Shown piece by piece: positions 7,974 through 49,349 of a stretch of 64,000 bases of DNA. Position numbers and translations under genes: made by a program. Numbering within the stretch: position 1 is the first letter of the stretch; each line of letters begins with the position of its first letter. Source of the DNA: a phage. The DNA is taken from NCBI GenBank assembly GCA_019338205.1, contig GCA_019338205.1_4761.1; one strand, written 5' to 3'. The notes under the pieces were generated by a model, which saw only the letters and a list, made by a program, of their open reading frames with translations, ran no database searches and was not told the origin of the DNA.

Positions 7974-9773
7974 TCACCCAAGATCAATACGGCTACCATC
8001 AATTTTAACTGTACCAGATGCAATATCTTTAACGCTTGCACCACAATTACGGGACCAGTCACCATTAACCTGATCTGATTTAGTGCCATTGACGGTCATA
8101 TTAAAATTACCCTCAACGGTTAAATCATAGTTACCTTTAATTGTTTCGGTAGTGTTACCCTCGATCATTAATTCAGCATTACCCTTGACGTTAGCCGTCA
8201 AATTGGCGTCAAGCTGCGCGGTAACATCACCTACAACATGCATATTTGCAGTACCTTCAACGGTCTGATTAACATTGCCACGAATAAATTCAGTGACGTT
8301 ACCATCAACGGTTTGCATCACATTACCCATATAATAAACTTGCGCGTCACCTTCAACAACAACTTGCAGATTGCCTTTAACGTTGACTTTGCGACCTTGC
8401 TTAACGATCAAATAATCATCACCTTCAATCTTTTCTACCCTCGTTCCGTCCGGTCTGGTTTCTTCAAATGTACCAGAAGGATGTTTACGATGATAACGCT
8501 CGTGAGAAGGAGTATCATCAATCTCGATAATATGACCGCTCTCTGACTCGTACACATGGTTATATGGATACCTTGCAGAATACGAACTCTTAGGCTCTTT
8601 AAACATGATTCGTGTGTCTTGTGGGGTAAACGGTGCTTCTGGGTCTTCTTCTGCTCTCTGCGTCTTATAGGCAGCAATACGGGCATTTCTCAAACGTGCT
8701 CTCGGATCATCTGAAACAGTTTCCTCTTTCTTAGGAGCAATTACGCCATATGATTCTAAGTTGCCAGTAAGAATAATTTTAGAAACACGGCTGGAGCGTC
8801 CTGGAGTTTGATTAGCCCATACTGATTGACGTAATCCATCATAGGCTTGTTTCCATTCTTCCGCTAACATCGCAGCAAGACTATTCTTAAATTTACCCAA
8901 TCCACCAACGCCCATTTGAAACGCCATATTTTCTAATGCCATACGACGTGAGGCATTACATTTATTATAGACAGGTGCAATTCGTGGATGTTTGCGCATA
9001 TCACGACGAGTCTTTTCTATATCGTCAGCAAATACTTTACTAACTTCTTCGGCGGTAAGTCTTCCGTTTGTAACTTCACGCCCTACCAGCTTAGAAAGTT
9101 CATTATTGATAATACCCAGATCACTGGTTTTCTTATAAATGATCAAATGCCCGATGCCTATTGTCGGATATCCTTCTGAATCAAGATACCATTTCTCGCG
9201 ATATCCCTCATCGCCCCGCAGCATTTTTTCTATTGTAAAATCAGGATTATCATCAACCGGAATTTGGTCTAATGGCTCGTCGTCTGGATTTACTGCAACT
9301 CCAGTGTTTTCATCTCGAATATAGACACTATCAGGTTTTGTTGTTTGTCCGGTTTCTGGGTTAATACCGCCACGAGCAAGAATATTAACATCATTACCAA
9401 TATAACGAGGATATGCACCAGAAGGGTCGCAAAAACCTTCTGTAGTGAGTGGTTTCTCTGTATATTGTCCGGCAATAGTACCCAGAATAACGCAGTTTAA
9501 ATAACGTTCATCTAAAGCCAAACCAAATACCATTGAACCTTCAACAATACCAGTAGGGCTTTGACCTATACCGGAGATCGCCGCGCTTGTAATATCTTGT
9601 ACTGGCGTAATCCATAATAGATCTTCGGTTGGAAGACCTTGAATGTCACCGTGTGCGGATAGCGAAGGATGTATACCATGAATCCTAACCTGAACACGCC
9701 CCAGCATTAATGGGTCTTCCCTGTTTTCTACAATTCCGGTAAACCATTTAACGGAGTTATTAAACATTAGCAT
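7974..9773 (-). CDS. 5: baseplate hub / tail-associated lysozyme gp5
   Basis: 599 aa; T4-lysozyme-like motif DSEGYPTIGIGHLI; C-terminal beta-helix repeats (VxGxxxxx); N-terminal OB-fold region; T4 gp5 is 575 aa. Confidence 0.9.
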   Translation of the reverse strand: MLMFNNSVKWFTGIVENREDPLMLGRVQVRIHGIHPSLSAHGDIQGLPTEDLLWITPVQDITSAAISGIGQSPTGIVEGSMVFGLALDERYLNCVILGTIAGQYTEKPLTTEGFCDPSGAYPRYIGNDVNILARGGINPETGQTTKPDSVYIRDENTGVAVNPDDEPLDQIPVDDNPDFTIEKMLRGDEGYREKWYLDSEGYPTIGIGHLIIYKKTSDLGIINNELSKLVGREVTNGRLTAEEVSKVFADDIEKTRRDMRKHPRIAPVYNKCNASRRMALENMAFQMGVGGLGKFKNSLAAMLAEEWKQAYDGLRQSVWANQTPGRSSRVSKIILTGNLESYGVIAPKKEETVSDDPRARLRNARIAAYKTQRAEEDPEAPFTPQDTRIMFKEPKSSYSARYPYNHVYESESGHIIEIDDTPSHERYHRKHPSGTFEETRPDGTRVEKIEGDDYLIVKQGRKVNVKGNLQVVVEGDAQVYYMGNVMQTVDGNVTEFIRGNVNQTVEGTANMHVVGDVTAQLDANLTANVKGNAELMIEGNTTETIKGNYDLTVEGNFNMTVNGTKSDQVNGDWSRNCGASVKDIASGTVKIDGSRIDLG

Positions 9774-9784
9774 AATTAATCACC

Positions 9785-10339
9785 TTACACATCAGCCTTT
9801 TCCATTTCTCGAATGAATGCGTTAATAAATTGTTTAATTTGTGTAGGGTCTATGATCTTGATCTTGCGTCGTTCCTCATTGCGGAGGATCGCATCTTCCA
9901 GTGTGTCTACCGCCGATAATGCACCTTGAAACTGCAAATGACGATGATGAATATCCCCTTTATCATACCAATTGCTTGATCCTTTCGGATATTCTGTAAG
10001 ATTCCAATACTTGTTTCCGTCAATATCAACATGGTATAATACTTGATTTCCTCCTACATTTGCATATCGTTGTTCGGCTGATTCATATGCTGTCTCTTGA
10101 TCGGTGATCCAGTCATGAAACGGATCGTATACGTCATTAAGCATCAGCAAGATCCAGTAAAGTTGTTGGTTTCCGTATACTTCATATGCAACTTGTTCCG
10201 GTCGTGGACTACCTTGAATGTAATATGTTTGTATGTTATAATCAGAAATTATTGCGTTGAAATATGCGCGGTAATTGCGCACAATGTCAGTAATCATCTT
10301 GCCGTTGTATTCAATGGCAGGGAAGAAAGAAAAGAGCAT
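9785..10339 (-). CDS. 53: baseplate wedge protein gp53
   Basis: 184 aa; N-terminus MLFSFFPAIEY resembles T4 gp53 (MLFTFFDPIEY); directly upstream of gene 5. Confidence 0.8.
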   Translation of the reverse strand: MLFSFFPAIEYNGKMITDIVRNYRAYFNAIISDYNIQTYYIQGSPRPEQVAYEVYGNQQLYWILLMLNDVYDPFHDWITDQETAYESAEQRYANVGGNQVLYHVDIDGNKYWNLTEYPKGSSNWYDKGDIHHRHLQFQGALSAVDTLEDAILRNEERRKIKIIDPTQIKQFINAFIREMEKADV

Positions 10340-10371
10340 TTTATCACCCTCAATTGATAAATAGTATTATG

Positions 10372-10379
10372 TATTTATA
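10372..10379 (-). promoter_or_regulatory. T4-type late promoter TATAAATA for the 53-5-6-7-8 operon
   Basis: exact TATAAATA on minus strand about 33 nt upstream of gp53 ATG. Confidence 0.6.
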
Positions 10380-10394
10380 ATAAAGGGTGCTAAA

Positions 10395-11090
10395 ATGGAC
10401 TATCAAAAACATTATGATCGATTAATTGAACGCGCAAAGCATAGAACGCTTGAAGGATATAAAGAAAAACATCATATTATTCCTCGTTGTATGGGAGGCG
10501 ATGATAGTCCAGAAAATATAGTTGAGTTAACGGGGTCTGAACATTTTGTTGCTCATCAACTTTTAGCAAAAATGCATCCAACACATCACGGAATTGTACA
10601 TGCGGCGAAAATATTGATGGGGTCTACCAACTATAACAATAAACAATTTGAGTGGGTAAGAAAACTTGCGGTCGAGACTTCAAGAAAATTTCATACAGGA
10701 AGAAAAAGATCCGAAGAGACTAGACGCAGAATATCAGAAGCAACTAAAGGAAAGAGAAAAGGAATTAAATTATCTGAGGAACATCGACAGAAATTATCTG
10801 CTTCATTAAAAGGTAGAGTGTTTACAGAAGAACATAAAAGAAATATTGCGTCAAGAGAAATTACACAAGAATGGAGAGACAACATCTCTAAAGCGGGTAA
10901 GGGTAGAAAGTTGTCACAAGAAAACGTAGAGAAATGGAAACGTATTCATAACACGCCAGAAATGAAACAAAAATATAGTGAATTGTCAAAGTCTCGTCCG
11001 TATTTCACCTGTCCTCATTGTGAAAAAACAGCCAATCAGGGAAATTATGTTAGATGGCATGGTGACAACTGCAAGAAGAAGGTGGTATAA
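10395..11090 (+). CDS. HNH homing endonuclease with NUMOD3-like repeats
   Basis: HHIIPRCMGGDDSPENIVELTGSEHFVAH HNH motif; repeated GRKRSEETRRRIS / GIKLSEEHRQKLS modules; C-terminal CxxC...CxxxxxC. Confidence 0.8.
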   Translation: MDYQKHYDRLIERAKHRTLEGYKEKHHIIPRCMGGDDSPENIVELTGSEHFVAHQLLAKMHPTHHGIVHAAKILMGSTNYNNKQFEWVRKLAVETSRKFHTGRKRSEETRRRISEATKGKRKGIKLSEEHRQKLSASLKGRVFTEEHKRNIASREITQEWRDNISKAGKGRKLSQENVEKWKRIHNTPEMKQKYSELSKSRPYFTCPHCEKTANQGNYVRWHGDNCKKKVV

Positions 11091-11563
11091 TGGGTAATTG
11101 CAACACATATAAGGGTAAATATAGACCTGAAAACCCGGAGAAGTATAAAGGCGACCTGAAAAAAATCGTCTACAGGTCAAGTTGGGAATTACATATAATG
11201 AAATTTTTAGACCGCAATCCTAGAGTTGCAAAATGGGGATCTGAGACCGTAGTAATTCCTTATGAGTCATCAACAGACGGAAAAAGACACAGATACTTTA
11301 TGGATTTTTACGTTAAGTTTGATGATGGCAAGGAGCATTTATGGGAAGTTAAACCAGCTAAAGAGACAAGGCCACCGGAAAAGCCAAAAAGAATGACCGC
11401 GAAGACAAAGCAACGATATATGCATGAAGTATGGACATACACAAAAAATACTGAAAAATGGTTAGCTGCCGTGAAATTATGCCAAAAGCATAACATGGAG
11501 TTTAAGATCATAACCGAACATGCATTAAAGAAAGTGTTTGGCTTTAAAGGGCTTAACAAATAG
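11090..11563 (+). CDS. 4: head completion protein gp4 (PD-(D/E)XK-like fold)
   Basis: 157 aa versus T4 gp4 150 aa; divergent from gene 53 as in T4; motif FMDFYV...LWEVKP. Confidence 0.55.
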   Translation: MGNCNTYKGKYRPENPEKYKGDLKKIVYRSSWELHIMKFLDRNPRVAKWGSETVVIPYESSTDGKRHRYFMDFYVKFDDGKEHLWEVKPAKETRPPEKPKRMTAKTKQRYMHEVWTYTKNTEKWLAAVKLCQKHNMEFKIITEHALKKVFGFKGLNK

Positions 11564-11574
11564 AGGATAATATT

Positions 11575-12396
11575 ATGAGCGTATTTGAAATAATCACAGA
11601 AGACGAAAAGCCGTCTCCCCAAAAACGAAAGTCTAAACAGTGGGTCGAATTGGGTGTAGAATTTGCGAAAGCAAAAGCCAAAGGCATGACAGCTAAAGCA
11701 TTTGCAGATTCTAAGGGAATAGCCTATGCGACTTTCACTAAAAGTATGTCTCGTTATGCCAGCGAAATTAAAACAGCAATAGAAGTTGAAAAACTAAAAG
11801 GGAAAAGTGCAAAGGGTCTCAATAAGCAGCAACGCGCAATGATGATGATTAATGATTTTCGTGCGTCTATGCGTGCTGTATCAAAGAGTCGTCCTAAAGA
11901 AAAATCACAGGAATGGTTTACTAAAACAATAAAAGCGGGAATAAAGGGACACCAGATTGTAAAACCGCAAGTAGGGCGAATCTATACCTTTATGTATGAT
12001 GCTAAGTATAAAGACACTTTGCCATATTGGGATGTTTTCCCACTGATCATTTGTCTGGGTGATTCTAAGACAAAGGCGGGTAATACTGTAATGCTGGGTC
12101 TTAACTTACACTATGTAACGCCTAAAGCCCGTCAGCAGTTTCTGGAAGCACTTTTAAAGCAATATGCATCTACTCCTACCTTGAGTAATAAAACACGCTT
12201 AAAAATCAAATGGAGCGATGTAAAAGGTATGCGTGGTAGTGACCACATGATCAAAGCATATCTACCGGGACACATTAAAACAAAACTTGTTGAGATTAGC
12301 CCGAAAGACTGGAGCAATATTATCTACCTTAACACATATAAATTTGTTTCTAAAGGTAAAAACTATGATGCAAGGAAGGTGTGGAAGGATGCTTAA
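11575..12396 (+). CDS. 2: DNA end protector protein gp2
   Basis: 273 aa versus T4 gp2 274 aa; synteny 4-2-3; SD GAGGAT. Confidence 0.55.
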   Translation: MSVFEIITEDEKPSPQKRKSKQWVELGVEFAKAKAKGMTAKAFADSKGIAYATFTKSMSRYASEIKTAIEVEKLKGKSAKGLNKQQRAMMMINDFRASMRAVSKSRPKEKSQEWFTKTIKAGIKGHQIVKPQVGRIYTFMYDAKYKDTLPYWDVFPLIICLGDSKTKAGNTVMLGLNLHYVTPKARQQFLEALLKQYASTPTLSNKTRLKIKWSDVKGMRGSDHMIKAYLPGHIKTKLVEISPKDWSNIIYLNTYKFVSKGKNYDARKVWKDA

Positions 12397-17357: not shown

Positions 17358-17536
17358 AATTATTTGCGTGGCTAATTATTTTAAATGTAATTGTTAAGAC
17401 CTTTCTCGCTGGTCTGATGATGGCGCATAGCACGAAACCAGAAGAAGCATTAACGTATTTTGTTGCTTATGTGCTGGGATTCTTGCTTACTGCGTGGATG
17501 TGTGATGAATATCGAAGAATTGAGGTAAAACCATGA
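17354..17536 (+). CDS. small two-helix membrane protein
   Basis: ATGA overlap; two hydrophobic segments. Confidence 0.4.
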   Translation: MKLFAWLIILNVIVKTFLAGLMMAHSTKPEEALTYFVAYVLGFLLTAWMCDEYRRIEVKP

Positions 17537-17751
17537 AAATGACTTTTTATATCTTAGCAAGTATCATGCTTGTGATCTCTTCTGCATTATTTGCATTTCT
17601 TACCGTTTGGGGGATCTGTACTGATGCGAAGCCGTGGGATATCGTAGAAAATACGGTTATGTTTATTATTAGTGTCATGTGTCTTTTTGATGCATTTAAC
17701 TCTATCAAGGAAGAAGACCAAAAACGTCGCGATAGAAAGCGATATAAATAA
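17533..17751 (+). CDS. small membrane protein with basic C-terminus
   Basis: ATGA overlap; hydrophobic N-terminal two thirds, KRRDRKRYK tail. Confidence 0.4.
   Translation: MKMTFYILASIMLVISSALFAFLTVWGICTDAKPWDIVENTVMFIISVMCLFDAFNSIKEEDQKRRDRKRYK
17743..17750 (+). promoter_or_regulatory. T4-type late promoter TATAAATA
   Basis: exact TATAAATA overlapping the stop of ORF 17533-17751, facing a 150-nt ORF-free structured segment. Confidence 0.4.
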
Positions 17752-17756
17752 TAGTG

Positions 17757-17927
17757 AACTAAAGACAGCGCGGTTAGAATGATTTGGACGTCACCTAGCC
17801 GCATTTATTGCAGCGTATGGGCGATCCGGTACGCTAAAGCATTCACTTGCTAGGCCGCTAGCAGGTTGGAGACAAGGAAGATTCGCTACCTTCCCTATAA
17901 GCCACTCTTCGGAGTGGCTTTTTTATT
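17757..17927 (+). ncRNA. candidate small structured RNA (late-promoter to terminator unit)
   Basis: no ORF above 25 codons; hairpins agcgta/tacgct, gctag/ctagc, ggaag/cttcc; ends at strong terminator. Confidence 0.25.
17901..17927 (+). terminator. intrinsic terminator
   Basis: gccactc-ttcg-gagtggc hairpin followed by TTTTTTATT. Confidence 0.75.
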
Positions 17928-27004: not shown

Positions 27005-27290
27005 GACTATCATTAATCTTGTTGTGTGGACTTTTATTTTCGTTATTGTTATTATGGCGGGTGTAGAGATTGTAAAACAATATCTATTGCAATCTCGAAA
27101 TAAACATGTTGTCGTTGATATGGACTCGCAAGGCAATAAGTTGATCCGGTTAGAAGATGGTCGGGAATATTGGGTCGGGTATCCCAAAACTCTGAAAGGG
27201 TTTATCCTTGCCATGAGCATTAACATCTTTTTCATTGGTATCTGGACTTATATCGGTTTAGGTCTTGTTGGATTTTTGGAGATTAATTAA
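26997..27290 (+). CDS. membrane protein (97 aa, two hydrophobic segments)
   Basis: ORF track; directly upstream of tk. Confidence 0.45.
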   Translation: MLETIINLVVWTFIFVIVIMAGVEIVKQYLLQSRNKHVVVDMDSQGNKLIRLEDGREYWVGYPKTLKGFILAMSINIFFIGIWTYIGLGLVGFLEIN

Positions 27291-27886
27291 TGGCGCAATT
27301 ATATTTCTACTATGCATCTATGAACGCTGGCAAATCAACTTCTCTGTTACAAAGTGCTTATAACTATACCGAACGTGATATGCGAGTATTAATTCTTAAG
27401 CCAGCGATTGATAATCGAGATTCAGAAAGTGAAGTCGTTTCCCGAATTGGCCTAAGTGCCCCAGCGATCACCTTCACTAAATCGGATGATCTTTTCGATT
27501 TGGTTTATCGTGAATCGTTAGGTAAGCGTAGACCGGATCGATGGCGTCCAGATGCAGTTTTTGTAGACGAAGCCCAATTTATGACTAAAGAGCATGTTTT
27601 AGGCTTGTGTGCGCTTGTTGATGATGCTAATATCCCTGTACTGTGCTATGGCCTTCGCACTGACTTTCAGGGCAATCTATTTGAAGGATCTGCGGCATTA
27701 ATGGCATTTGCTGATAAGCTGGTCGAAATGAAGGGTATTTGTCATTGTGGCAAGAAAGCGACTATGGTCCTTCGCGTAGATAAAGATGGTAATGTTATTC
27801 GCGATGGTGCTCAAATAGAAGTTGGTGCAGAGGATAAATATGTTTCGGTGTGCCGTAAACATTTTATTGACGGTACTACCAAATAA
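27290..27886 (+). CDS. tk: thymidine kinase
   Basis: MAQLYFYYASMNAGKSTSLLQSAYNY P-loop and C-terminal Cys cluster typical of Tdk. Confidence 0.95.
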   Translation: MAQLYFYYASMNAGKSTSLLQSAYNYTERDMRVLILKPAIDNRDSESEVVSRIGLSAPAITFTKSDDLFDLVYRESLGKRRPDRWRPDAVFVDEAQFMTKEHVLGLCALVDDANIPVLCYGLRTDFQGNLFEGSAALMAFADKLVEMKGICHCGKKATMVLRVDKDGNVIRDGAQIEVGAEDKYVSVCRKHFIDGTTK

Positions 27887-27913
27887 GAGTTAATCATAAA
27901 TAAAGCCCCAGAT

Positions 27914-27921
27914 TATAAATA
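27914..27921 (+). promoter_or_regulatory. T4-type late promoter TATAAATA (inside loop of 9-bp inverted repeat)
   Basis: exact TATAAATA; flanked by ccccagatt 27906-27914 and aatctgggg 27936-27944; 33 nt upstream of ATG 27954. Confidence 0.45.
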
Positions 27922-27953
27922 TAACTGAATATTTCAATCTGGGGGAATGACTT

Positions 27954-28256
27954 ATGTCATTTATTCGTAAAACTCTAACAGCGGCAATATGCTTGACTGC
28001 GGTCGGAAGTGTCAGTGCTGATCAATATGATCCAACTGGTGACTTTACTGATTATTTCGACGGCGCAATGATAGTATATGTAAACAAAATATCTCCTTCC
28101 ATTGAAACCAGCCAGAAATTTCATGCCCATATTATGAAGATGTATGCTCGTAGTAAATGTATGGATTCTAGGCAGTGTTTTATTATGGGTGGATATGCCG
28201 CACAACAATTTGTTCTGTTGCATAATATGGAGAATCGAGAACATGAAATTCAGTGA
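27954..28256 (+). CDS. secreted/periplasmic protein (100 aa)
   Basis: signal peptide ending VSA; downstream of late-promoter motif. Confidence 0.5.
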   Translation: MSFIRKTLTAAICLTAVGSVSADQYDPTGDFTDYFDGAMIVYVNKISPSIETSQKFHAHIMKMYARSKCMDSRQCFIMGGYAAQQFVLLHNMENREHEIQ

Positions 28257-28641
28257 TTTTCTAAAGACTTCCGAAGAGGGAAAGGCTAATAAAGTTGACC
28301 GCTTTATCGGTGAATGTCTGATGAGTGTTACTTATATGCATTCTGCGCATTTTGGGGTAACTGGTCCTGGATCTTATGCAAAACATAAGGCTCTAGAAGA
28401 GTTCTATCTTGAAATGCAAGAATTGGTTGATAATTTCACTGAAACCAATATTGGGATCACTGGTCGTTATCAGCCAAAGTTGGTCGTCCGCAAGGAGATT
28501 AGCGAAATTGCCTATTTGCAAGAGTTAACGCAAATGGCTAGTGAGATTTATAATGATGTTGATAGCTCGTTACAGAGTGTTTTAGACGATATCAAAGCTC
28601 TATGCTTTAAAACAATTTATAAACTCACTCGACTGGCTTAA
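28243..28641 (+). CDS. hypothetical protein (132 aa)
   Basis: ORF track frame; ATG 28243 with SD GGAG. Confidence 0.45.
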   Translation: MKFSDFLKTSEEGKANKVDRFIGECLMSVTYMHSAHFGVTGPGSYAKHKALEEFYLEMQELVDNFTETNIGITGRYQPKLVVRKEISEIAYLQELTQMASEIYNDVDSSLQSVLDDIKALCFKTIYKLTRLA

Positions 28642-28875
28642 TGTTAGTCACCGTGGGATGCATACCATAAGTAAAAGAATACTAGCATTAACACAACTAT
28701 TTGGCTTCCTCATACTTTCGCGTGTTCAATTACTGCCGAATCGGAAGACCCGTCTAAGACGAGGAAGGGTTATCATTGGAAAGGGATGGTGAATTGGTTA
28801 CTATGTTTAACTAGTTTAGCAAAGGTCGATTCAAACACTACTATACAAATGGACGTGAATAAAATATAATCAAAA

Positions 28876-28898
28876 GCCATCCGAAAGGGTGGCTTTTT
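28876..28898 (+). terminator. intrinsic terminator
   Basis: gccatcc-gaaa-gggtggc hairpin plus TTTTT. Confidence 0.65.
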
Positions 28899-47306: not shown

Positions 47307-48775
47307 TGAAGATTGAAACATTAATTGCATTGCCAGCGGCGGGGAAAACTGATGCTATACTTTCCCACGTCCTAGAGACAAAAGAAAAAGCGGTTATTGC
47401 TTCGCCATCTCGTGTTTTAAGTGAACAATCTTACAATAAGTTTAAAAGAATGGGCGGTCGTGCTGTCTTGATTGATAGCACAAGACTAAGAAGCCTTAAG
47501 ACAGTGCAAGCGTCGATAATGCAATCAGTTAAAGACGGTGCTGATGTGATATTCATTACACATACAGCGTTATCTAATATGGAACGTTCAAAAATGTTTG
47601 GTGAATATGCTCTTTACATTGATGAAGTTCCTCAACTGGTTGAATTTAATGAGTATCCGTTTAAGTCTAATCTTGAACTTATCACGAAGCATTGCGAACC
47701 AATCGCCGACGAATCGGAATGCCTACAGAACTTAGTTCTAAAAGACTCTGAGAAGGCCGTTATCAAAGAAAAGATAGAAAGTGCAAAGGATGGTACTGAT
47801 ATGATCGATTCTTCTCTTAGAGGGCTTTATGAGGCGTTATTAGAGAAGAAAATCAACGTTATGGTAAAACATAACGAAGGACACCGGAAGAATGGGTCGA
47901 AAATTGTTTTCTTGAACGATAACAAACACGGTACGTGGGGAGACTTTAAAAAGGTTACGATAGCATGTGCAAATCTCTTTGATACATATAGCGGGAAGTA
48001 TCTACGATACTATGCAAATTGCGATTTTGTTCCGAGTGCGCTAGAATCCAGACTATATTTCAAAGAGTATAAAAATACAGATAGAGTTAATATCATCCTT
48101 ATGACGGACTCTGAACGATGGTCGCGTCACCAGTCAGAAACAAACAATACCTTTGAACGTCTTGTTGATATGGTTAAAAATGAATGTGGCGATGACTTCA
48201 TTTATACCGTGAATCGGGACCGAGAAGCGTGTACAAATGGTATTGGTGAGCGGATACCTTACGGATCTTATGGTCTTAACTCTTACATTCATCATAAAAA
48301 TGTTGCTGTGATGTTCAGCTTTAACCCGCAACGATGGGAGATTGATATTTTAAAAGGTCTTGCTAATAGTTGTGATCTCCCGACAAACGAGTTTTTGAAA
48401 GCGCGTCATGTGTCTGATTATCTGGAACCAGCATTTCAATTATGTTTGCGTTGTAACCTGAGAGACAACGAGAGCAAGGAGAATGTTAATCTATATGTTC
48501 CTGATTTGGCGTTGGTAGATTATCTAAAAACGTTTCTACCTGATGCCAATGTAATAACAGACCGAATGATTCCGCTAGAATGTGGTGAGCGTAAAGGGCG
48601 AAAATCATTTAAAAAGATGTTCGATTTTAACGAGCAAGAGAATGCAAGATTTAACGGATTTAAGTACCGCATGAAGAAAAAGGGAAAAACTCTTGATCCG
48701 TCTGACGGTGAATCTGTAGAGATGGTTAGAGTGTGGATAACTAAGCAAAGAAAGTATAATGGTAATGGGGAATAG
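47306..48775 (+). CDS. P-loop NTPase of unknown function (489 aa)
   Basis: Walker A LPAAGKTDA and Walker B ALYIDEVP; no counterpart recognised at this position in T4. Confidence 0.55.
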   Translation: MKIETLIALPAAGKTDAILSHVLETKEKAVIASPSRVLSEQSYNKFKRMGGRAVLIDSTRLRSLKTVQASIMQSVKDGADVIFITHTALSNMERSKMFGEYALYIDEVPQLVEFNEYPFKSNLELITKHCEPIADESECLQNLVLKDSEKAVIKEKIESAKDGTDMIDSSLRGLYEALLEKKINVMVKHNEGHRKNGSKIVFLNDNKHGTWGDFKKVTIACANLFDTYSGKYLRYYANCDFVPSALESRLYFKEYKNTDRVNIILMTDSERWSRHQSETNNTFERLVDMVKNECGDDFIYTVNRDREACTNGIGERIPYGSYGLNSYIHHKNVAVMFSFNPQRWEIDILKGLANSCDLPTNEFLKARHVSDYLEPAFQLCLRCNLRDNESKENVNLYVPDLALVDYLKTFLPDANVITDRMIPLECGERKGRKSFKKMFDFNEQENARFNGFKYRMKKKGKTLDPSDGESVEMVRVWITKQRKYNGNGE

Positions 48776-48815: not shown

Positions 48816-49349
48816 GTGTCTGATTATGTAAACAATAAAGAGCTTTACGAAGAAATTTGCCGTTGGAAACAACAAATTGCAGCAGAAGGTCGGCAAGTTC
48901 CAATGAGCGATCAAATCGGCCTAGCAATTATGCAAATCTCTAAAAATCTATCACGTCGTTTTAACTTTTCTGGTTATAGTCAAACATGGCGCGAAGAAAT
49001 GATCGACGACGGAATCGAAGCGGCGGTCAAGGGTTTGATTAATTTTGACGAGACAAAGTATAAAAATCCTCATGCTTACATCACGCAAGCGTGCTTTAAT
49101 GCTTTTGTACAGCGCATTAAAAAAGAGAGAACAGCGACAGCCGCAAAATACAAATATTTTGTGCATCATGTATATGACGAACGCGACGCTGATATGTGCC
49201 AGATTGCTGATGAGGCATTCATACAGGACATTTACGATAAAATCAACAACTACGAGGAATCGGTCAATAAACCGAAAGCGCCAAAGGTTGAAGATGTATT
49301 GACCGAGGAATTGCCTAGCCTGGACCAATTTTATGAGATTGAAAATTAA
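48816..49349 (+). CDS. 55: late transcription sigma factor gp55
   Basis: 177 aa; [16 protein letters not shown]-terminus typical of gp55; position between nrdH and gene 47. Confidence 0.85.

Follow-up and report, generated by a model that had tools for sequence, protein, structure and literature searches.

Examination of a 64-kb stretch of phage DNA (hereafter the window) identified a hairpin in the spacer between tk and rI that probably acts as a temporal gate, restricting translation of the antiholin gene rI to late transcripts. The 3' arm of this hairpin covers 4 of the 5 Gs of the rI Shine-Dalgarno (SD) sequence, a point absent from the earlier note on this DNA, and its 5' arm adjoins a T4-type late promoter, TATAAATA. 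We observed the structure and its overlap with the SD, a difference between long and short RNAs in the computed energy of the SD, the outlier status of rI for SD occlusion, and conservation of the helix with compensatory change. We infer from the arrangement of the locus where late transcription starts, that read-through RNA reaches rI, and that the two RNAs differ in their translation.

By sequence similarity, the window is assigned to Krischvirus, the RB49/JSE-like phages of the family Straboviridae. A 2-kb query around the element matched 59 phage records, mostly at 95-99% identity, and in 58 of these the match spanned at least 80% of the query. The records are those of RB49, JSE, phi1, GEC-3S and their relatives. 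Near the element every gene lies on the + strand (Table 1). The tk stop codon (27884-27886) is separated from rI by 67 nt. The gene downstream, previously described as encoding a secreted protein, is indeed of that kind: it is rI, encoding the exported RI antiholin (PF24205, 'T4-like virus antiholin', 3e-23; PHROG 1246 is titled 'lysis inhibition'). RI is the central regulator of T-even lysis inhibition. Since the start of rI.-1 overlaps the end of rI, rI.-1 is probably translationally coupled to rI and co-regulated with it. The late sigma factor is encoded in the window as well, by gene 55 (PHROG 234, 'late sigma transcription factor'), which is also annotated in JSE. Separately, an out-of-frame mini-ORF of 7 codons occupies 27947-27970, its ATG (27947) falling directly after the rI SD; in phage Skers a 13-nt deletion places this ATG in frame with rI, and RI there begins MTRKTL.

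Table 1. Features of the tk-rI region and gene 55 (window coordinates).
Feature	Position	Strand	Basis or remark
tk (thymidine kinase)	27290..27886	+	Pfam PF00265, 1e-51; annotated tk in 59 Krischvirus records
5' arm (CCCCAGAUU), anti-SD strand	27906..27914	+	only on RNA starting upstream
T4-type late promoter TATAAATA, gp55-dependent, predicted	27914..27921	+	exact match
Inner A-U helix, 27917-27922 with 27929-27934	27917..27934	+	MFE structure
Late transcription start, inferred ~27927	27925..27929	+	T4 late-promoter geometry
3' arm (AAUCUGGGG), overlaps rI Shine-Dalgarno	27936..27944	+	
rI Shine-Dalgarno GGGGG	27941..27945	+	8 nt before ATG; annotated ribosome-binding site in Makalu_002 record
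Second small hairpin GAAUGAC-UUAU-GUCAUUU	27945..27962	+	rI AUG at loop/3'-arm junction
rI (antiholin, lysis-inhibition regulator; regulated gene)	27954..28256	+	Pfam PF24205, 3e-23; PHROG 1246, 2.7e-25
rI.-1 (DUF5856)	28243..28641	+	Pfam PF19174, 9.8e-21
First canonical intrinsic terminator downstream, end of tk-rI-rI.-1 unit	28872..28897	+	consensus scan
Gene 55 (late sigma factor recognising TATAAATA, needed in trans)	48816..49349	+	PHROG 234, 4.2e-63

The element is built on a perfect 9-bp inverted repeat, as the earlier note had reported: CCCCAGATT (27906-27914) and AATCTGGGG (27936-27944) are 100% complementary, with 21 nt between the arms. The loop had likewise been said to open with an exact TATAAATA. 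The match is exact, but it begins one base earlier, its first T being the last base of the 5' arm, and the loop proper opens with ATAAATA. The distance to the gene holds, the rI ATG (27954) lying 33 nt past the last base of TATAAATA. On read-through RNA the hairpin is lengthened by an inner A-U helix whose sequence differs among relatives in an alignment of the element (alignment A4). The 89-nt RNA around the element folds at -25.2 kcal/mol, compared to -10.95 +/- 2.9 for its dinucleotide shuffles (z = -4.9), and none of 200 shuffles produced an equally stable fold.

Judging from sequence and position, the copy of TATAAATA at 27914-27921 is very likely a true late promoter of the gp55 type. 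It is one of 3 exact copies in the 64 kb and lies in the non-coding tk-rI spacer, oriented toward rI. T4 is known to have a late promoter in its tk-rI.1 interval (Paddison et al. 1998, as cited in PMC2962797), and in the T4 sequence TATAAATA stands at precisely this place. The exact motif is also found upstream of rI.1 or rI in Karamvirus CC31, Cronobacter phage VP8, Serratia phage 4S and the Slopekvirus KP15. In RB49, a late promoter had been predicted on the - strand at 48714-48756 (Pl:48756; Nolan et al. 2006), and we mapped the RB49 TATAAATA to 48724-48731, inside this prediction. The claim that a late promoter lies here is thereby supported by positional homology with T4, by the motif in relatives, by the RB49 prediction and by the gene 55 of the window. 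By the same comparisons the promoter is not new, being homologous to the T4 tk-rI.1 late promoter and already predicted in RB49. Since T4 late promoters have their TATA box roughly one helical turn ahead of +1 (PMC2988020), late transcription would start at ~27927, inside the loop, past the 5' arm and ahead of the 3' arm. RB49-like phages are without MotA and middle promoters (PMC1524935).

Another exact copy of TATAAATA lies at 17743-17750, where it overlaps the stop codon of the ORF at 17533-17751. It is followed by ~165 nt of ORF-poor, GC-rich sequence with a predicted fold of -63.6 kcal/mol (z = -4.5), and a strong terminator (17899-17920, with a T-run) closes the stretch, which has no Rfam or tRNA match. 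We regard 17743-17920 as a candidate for a small RNA driven by a late promoter.

We computed partition functions for model transcripts with different 5' starts. GGGGG is the sole SD candidate for rI, and a non-canonical one. On read-through RNA (start at 27800 or 27887) the model gave this SD a probability of 0.02 of being unpaired and an opening cost of 15.5-16.0 kcal/mol, whereas on late RNA (start at 27925-27927) the corresponding values were 0.22-0.24 and 3.9-4.5 kcal/mol. The ~4 kcal/mol left on the late RNA is due to the second small hairpin (27945-27962), which is present on early and late RNA alike. The tk stop codon lies 19 nt before the 5' arm, so that a ribosome ending its translation of tk would not be expected to open the stem.

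To place rI among other genes, we ranked the 103 annotated genes of JSE, which is 98.5% identical here, by the cost of opening positions -14 to -5 in a 110-nt context. rI was first of the 103, at 20.3 kcal/mol, whereas the median was 3.5 and the 95th percentile 9.4. Next in the ranking came genes 53 and 4, an unnamed ORF, 49 and the endolysin gene; control of late translation by a hairpin is established for both 49 and the lysozyme gene e of T4 (PMC3014915).

Some of these genes deserve comment in their own right. The start of the endolysin gene (window 21506-21541, ATG 21539) is predicted to be occluded (9.4 kcal/mol, rank 6 of 103), and a near-consensus TCTAAATA lies 26 nt upstream of its ATG, which recalls the arrangement at T4 gene e. 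Between the divergent late genes 53 and 4, second and third for SD occlusion in JSE, the intergenic region (10340-10397) carries SDs that are mutually complementary (CACCCT / AGGGTG), and the resulting hairpin encloses a TATAAATA on the - strand (10372-10379). In the window, this divergent late-promoter region is separated from gene 4 (11090-11563) by a homing-endonuclease gene (10395-11090; PHROG 655, 5e-64; NUMOD3 motif). In JSE, gene 4 comes directly after the region, and the sequence serving there as its translation start region is used in the window by the endonuclease gene. In JSE itself, the annotation splits nrdD in two around a homing-endonuclease gene (9716-12338), and the translation start of this endonuclease is among the more occluded, ranking 7th.

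A hairpin around the AUG recurs at rI, with unrelated stems, in T4 (AGGCC-UUUAU-GGCCU), VP8 (GGGAC-UAU-GUCCC) and 4S (GGGCC-CUAU-GGUCC), and in these 3 phages it also takes in the SD. To judge from this recurrence, the AUG hairpin may be a conserved damper of RI translation.

Under the model that we favor, transcripts started upstream and encoding tk would run across the 67-nt spacer into the hairpin and rI, read-through that is expected from the lack of a terminator between the two genes. On such RNA the 5' arm (27906-27914) would pair with the 3' arm (27936-27944), burying 4 of the 5 SD Gs and keeping 30S subunits off, with the result that RI, along with the product of the overlapping rI.-1, would not be made from it. 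Once DNA replication permits late transcription, RNA polymerase carrying gp55 would start at the TATAAATA that adjoins the 5' arm; the late RNA, beginning at ~27927 without this arm, would expose the SD and allow rI to be translated. Since the T4 rI operon, which is without the upstream arm, has an early promoter as well as a late one (PMC2962797) and is transcribed early too, a strict early block would amount to a genus-specific difference in lysis inhibition. Also weighing against the gate are the non-canonical SD, the ~4 kcal/mol that the AUG hairpin still exacts on late RNA, the terminator label that one published annotation gives the hairpin, and a TransTerm terminator predicted upstream, between vs and tk.4, which could lessen the early RNA arriving at tk and rI. 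We also considered a putative regulated switch, in which a phage or host factor, or a condition linked to superinfection or slow growth, opens the SD on the read-through RNA. Such a switch strikes us as exceedingly improbable; if it existed, the antiholin and lysis inhibition could be inducible on demand, before or independently of late transcription.

We next consider how the element varies among relatives. The arms, the promoter and the SD were invariant in 10 aligned Krischvirus sequences, in which the variable parts were the 5' flank (in JK32) and the 3' part of the loop, in both sequence and length; all 59 phage records holding the element region cover at least 80% of it. More diverged relatives were reached by a protein search for RI homologues followed by contig look-ups in metagenome assemblies. 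The metagenomic homologues were 73-81% identical, and their contigs all showed tk then rI with the same element. In the metagenomic relatives examined, pairing and promoter were kept while loop and flank varied. Several of these lineages carry a C in place of G27905, or an extra inner A-U pair, extending the helix to 10-11 bp and covering all 5 SD Gs. In the most diverged lineage (L034) the stem has been rewritten as CCCCUAAGUUA / UAACUUGGGGG, with 2 double-sided compensatory pairs (G-C to A-U and A-U to G-C) and a U·G wobble. In alignment A4, 94% of cells were paired, compared to 34-52% when the partners were slid by 1-3 columns, and the observed covariation was reached in only 6 of 500 shuffles. 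These results point to maintenance of the helix by selection. The covariation support is modest, both compensatory pairs coming from the single lineage L034; the remaining stem positions are invariant and uninformative either way. One further contig (L030) begins 10 nt before the ATG and is uninformative for the stem. A viral-contig scan returned one near-identical locus and the one metagenome scan 3 close loci, and an RI alignment across nine genera contained no stretch conserved enough for searching.

These comparisons also bear on whether the palindrome is a functionless product of chance, perhaps the leftover arm of an ancestral terminator (…CCCC-TTTATAAATA in other genera). In 64 kb, chance alone would supply about 9 perfect 9-bp inverted repeats, and most positions of the stem show no variation at all among close relatives; both observations fit this explanation. 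The window holds 31 such repeats with loops of 3-30 nt, compared to 9.2 +/- 3.2 in Markov-1 simulations, and its 3 exact copies of TATAAATA compare to 5.8 expected; neither count is significant alone. One-mismatch variants of TATAAATA are depleted (90 versus 135 +/- 12 in dinucleotide shuffles), consistent with selection against stray late promoters in a mostly early region. Rather, the case for more than chance rests on position (the 3' arm falls on the rI SD within a 67-nt spacer), on the rank of rI for SD occlusion, and on conservation with compensatory change in diverged relatives. The z score of the fold, the retention of the arms while the neighboring flank and loop diverged, and the fact that one-sided changes lengthen the stem likewise argue against chance, which we hold to be very unlikely. 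Rfam at the gathering threshold gave no match anywhere in the window, and a tRNA scan of the whole window returned nothing.

The same variation speaks to a role at the level of DNA, in which a dimeric DNA-binding protein would use the repeat as its operator, or the repeat would form a cruciform, so modulating the late promoter. The repeat flanks the promoter symmetrically, and autorepression by I-TevI provides a precedent for a protein that occludes a T4 late promoter (PMC2988022). However, the arm-to-arm distance ranges from 18 to 23 nt across relatives, which argues against an operator of fixed spacing, and at the T·G positions of L034 and JK32 the arms can pair only as U·G in + strand RNA. 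Moreover, both half-sites of L034 change together, as base pairing, not a protein site, would predict, and no candidate binding protein is known. A DNA-level role thus appears more improbable still than chance. The U·G pairs and the variable spacing favor + strand RNA pairing over either a DNA operator or a - strand structure, and we found no basis for the suggestion in the earlier note that the structure occludes the late promoter; it is an RNA hairpin on transcripts arriving from upstream.

The earlier note had further proposed that the hairpin could be the terminator of tk. As an intrinsic terminator or attenuator, it would end early tk transcription, with the late promoter merely embedded in it. 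The record of phage G37-3 labels it as such on the basis of ARNOLD (-11.16), the sole call of this kind, and a GC-rich hairpin lies just upstream of the homologous late promoter in CC31, VP8, 4S and KP15. For RB43, the literature places a TransTerm terminator and a predicted late promoter in overlapping positions just ahead of rI, and insulation therefore looks recurrent. In the Krischvirus element, however, the stem is followed by GAAUGACUUAUG without a U-tract, the loop is 18-23 nt long, and our consensus terminator scan did not flag a hairpin between tk and rI. In RB49, the terminators of the published TransTerm list bracket the unit, falling between vs and tk.4 on one side and past the rI operon on the other, with none between tk and rI. 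A terminator would also leave unexplained why the 3' arm coincides with the SD and why pairing in relatives reaches the fifth SD G. We therefore judge termination unlikely, though it is the most probable of the alternatives to the gate, and annotation pipelines that label the element a terminator are probably wrong. A terminator acting on the - strand, where the A-rich 5' flank would become a U-rich tail, was rejected as unlikely: on the relevant side there are no - strand genes for >20 kb, and the U·G pairs would become C·A mismatches. Downstream, the terminator that closes the unit (28872-28897) matches by position the published RB49 terminator 'ORF084c<--rI' and is followed by a sigma-70-like promoter matching the predicted RB49 promoter Pe:47746. 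Of the early promoters predicted in RB49, Pe:52389 is the nearest.

Finally, the hairpin might serve RNA processing or stability, by protecting the 3' end of the tk mRNA once an endonuclease has cut it or by providing a nuclease entry site, and play no part in translating rI. In its favor, this stem-loop 3' of tk is stable and conserved, and T4-type phages process their polycistronic early RNAs extensively (PMC3014915); such a role is, moreover, compatible with the gate. On the other hand, helices of 9 and 6 bp fall short of what RNase III requires, the element contains no GGAG site for RegB, and the exact overlap with the SD, the promoter adjoining the 5' arm and the occlusion rank of rI would all go unexplained. 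We consider a role confined to processing or stability quite unlikely, less probable than termination and somewhat more so than chance.

If the gate operates as proposed, RB49-like phages would confine RI synthesis to the replication-coupled late phase by means of RNA structure. The model predicts that superinfection sensing and the onset of lysis inhibition occupy a different time window in Krischvirus, a genus often isolated for phage therapy, than in T4. A lysis-timing gene would also join the short list of T4-family genes with a late promoter inside an SD-masking hairpin. Our literature searches returned no report of this design for rI or for Krischvirus, and nothing on transcripts or lysis inhibition in RB49-like phages.

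Sister genera seem to insulate rI otherwise, with a hairpin and T-run ahead of the same promoter, and the contrast illustrates compactly how regulation can turn over while the promoter is conserved. In CC31, VP8, 4S and KP15 a GC-rich stem lies directly 5' of TATAAATA. In contrast to Krischvirus, both arms precede the promoter, a short T-run follows, and the downstream SD is untouched. These hairpins are plausibly terminator-like, insulating the rI operon from upstream transcription; a simple scan flagged none of the + strand hairpins of these 4 phages and called the - strand only in CC31 and VP8. A theme appears to recur: a late promoter drives the rI operon, which is shielded from transcription arriving from upstream, and Krischvirus seems to do the shielding at the level of translation. 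We speculate that the CCCC adjoining the Krischvirus promoter is a remnant of the 3' arm that such a hairpin had in an ancestor (…CTCCCC-TTTATAAATA).

The promoters of T4 (tk-rI.1) and RB49 (Pl:48756) share position, TATAAATA and orientation with that of the window. The T4 promoter precedes rI.1, a gene absent here, and does not lie in an SD-pairing hairpin; unlike the window, the T4 rI region has the late promoter without such an upstream arm. The RB49 prediction covered the promoter only and not the structure.

Late promoters inside SD-masking hairpins are known for T4 e, soc, 49, I-TevI, I-TevII, I-TevIII and segB and for Aeh1 mobE (PMC3014915, PMC2988022). A close parallel is gene e, where the hairpin has a 100-fold effect (PMC3014915). 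According to the review of the work of McPheeters et al. (PMC3014915), e is, like rI here, a lysis-related gene; it lies in an early unit, its SD is held in a helix on the long early RNA with TATAAATA within the region of the 5' strand, and its late RNA, without the 5' strand, is translated, an arrangement that we propose for rI as well. The 2 cases differ in that e encodes the endolysin and has two late promoters, whereas the gene here encodes the antiholin and has one, and in that here, as predicted from sequence, the first base of the promoter is the last base of the stem. In soc (capsid decoration), 49 (recombination) and the homing-endonuclease genes I-TevI, I-TevII, I-TevIII, segB and Aeh1 mobE, late genes are carried in early or middle polycistronic RNAs and translated only from late transcripts started inside the inhibitory hairpin. 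The design is the same as that proposed here, with no sequence similarity to the present element. In contrast to the soc, 49 and homing-endonuclease hairpins, the regulated helix here takes in the SD alone, the AUG being placed in a separate small hairpin. The design is thus known from T4, and its use at rI would be the addition.
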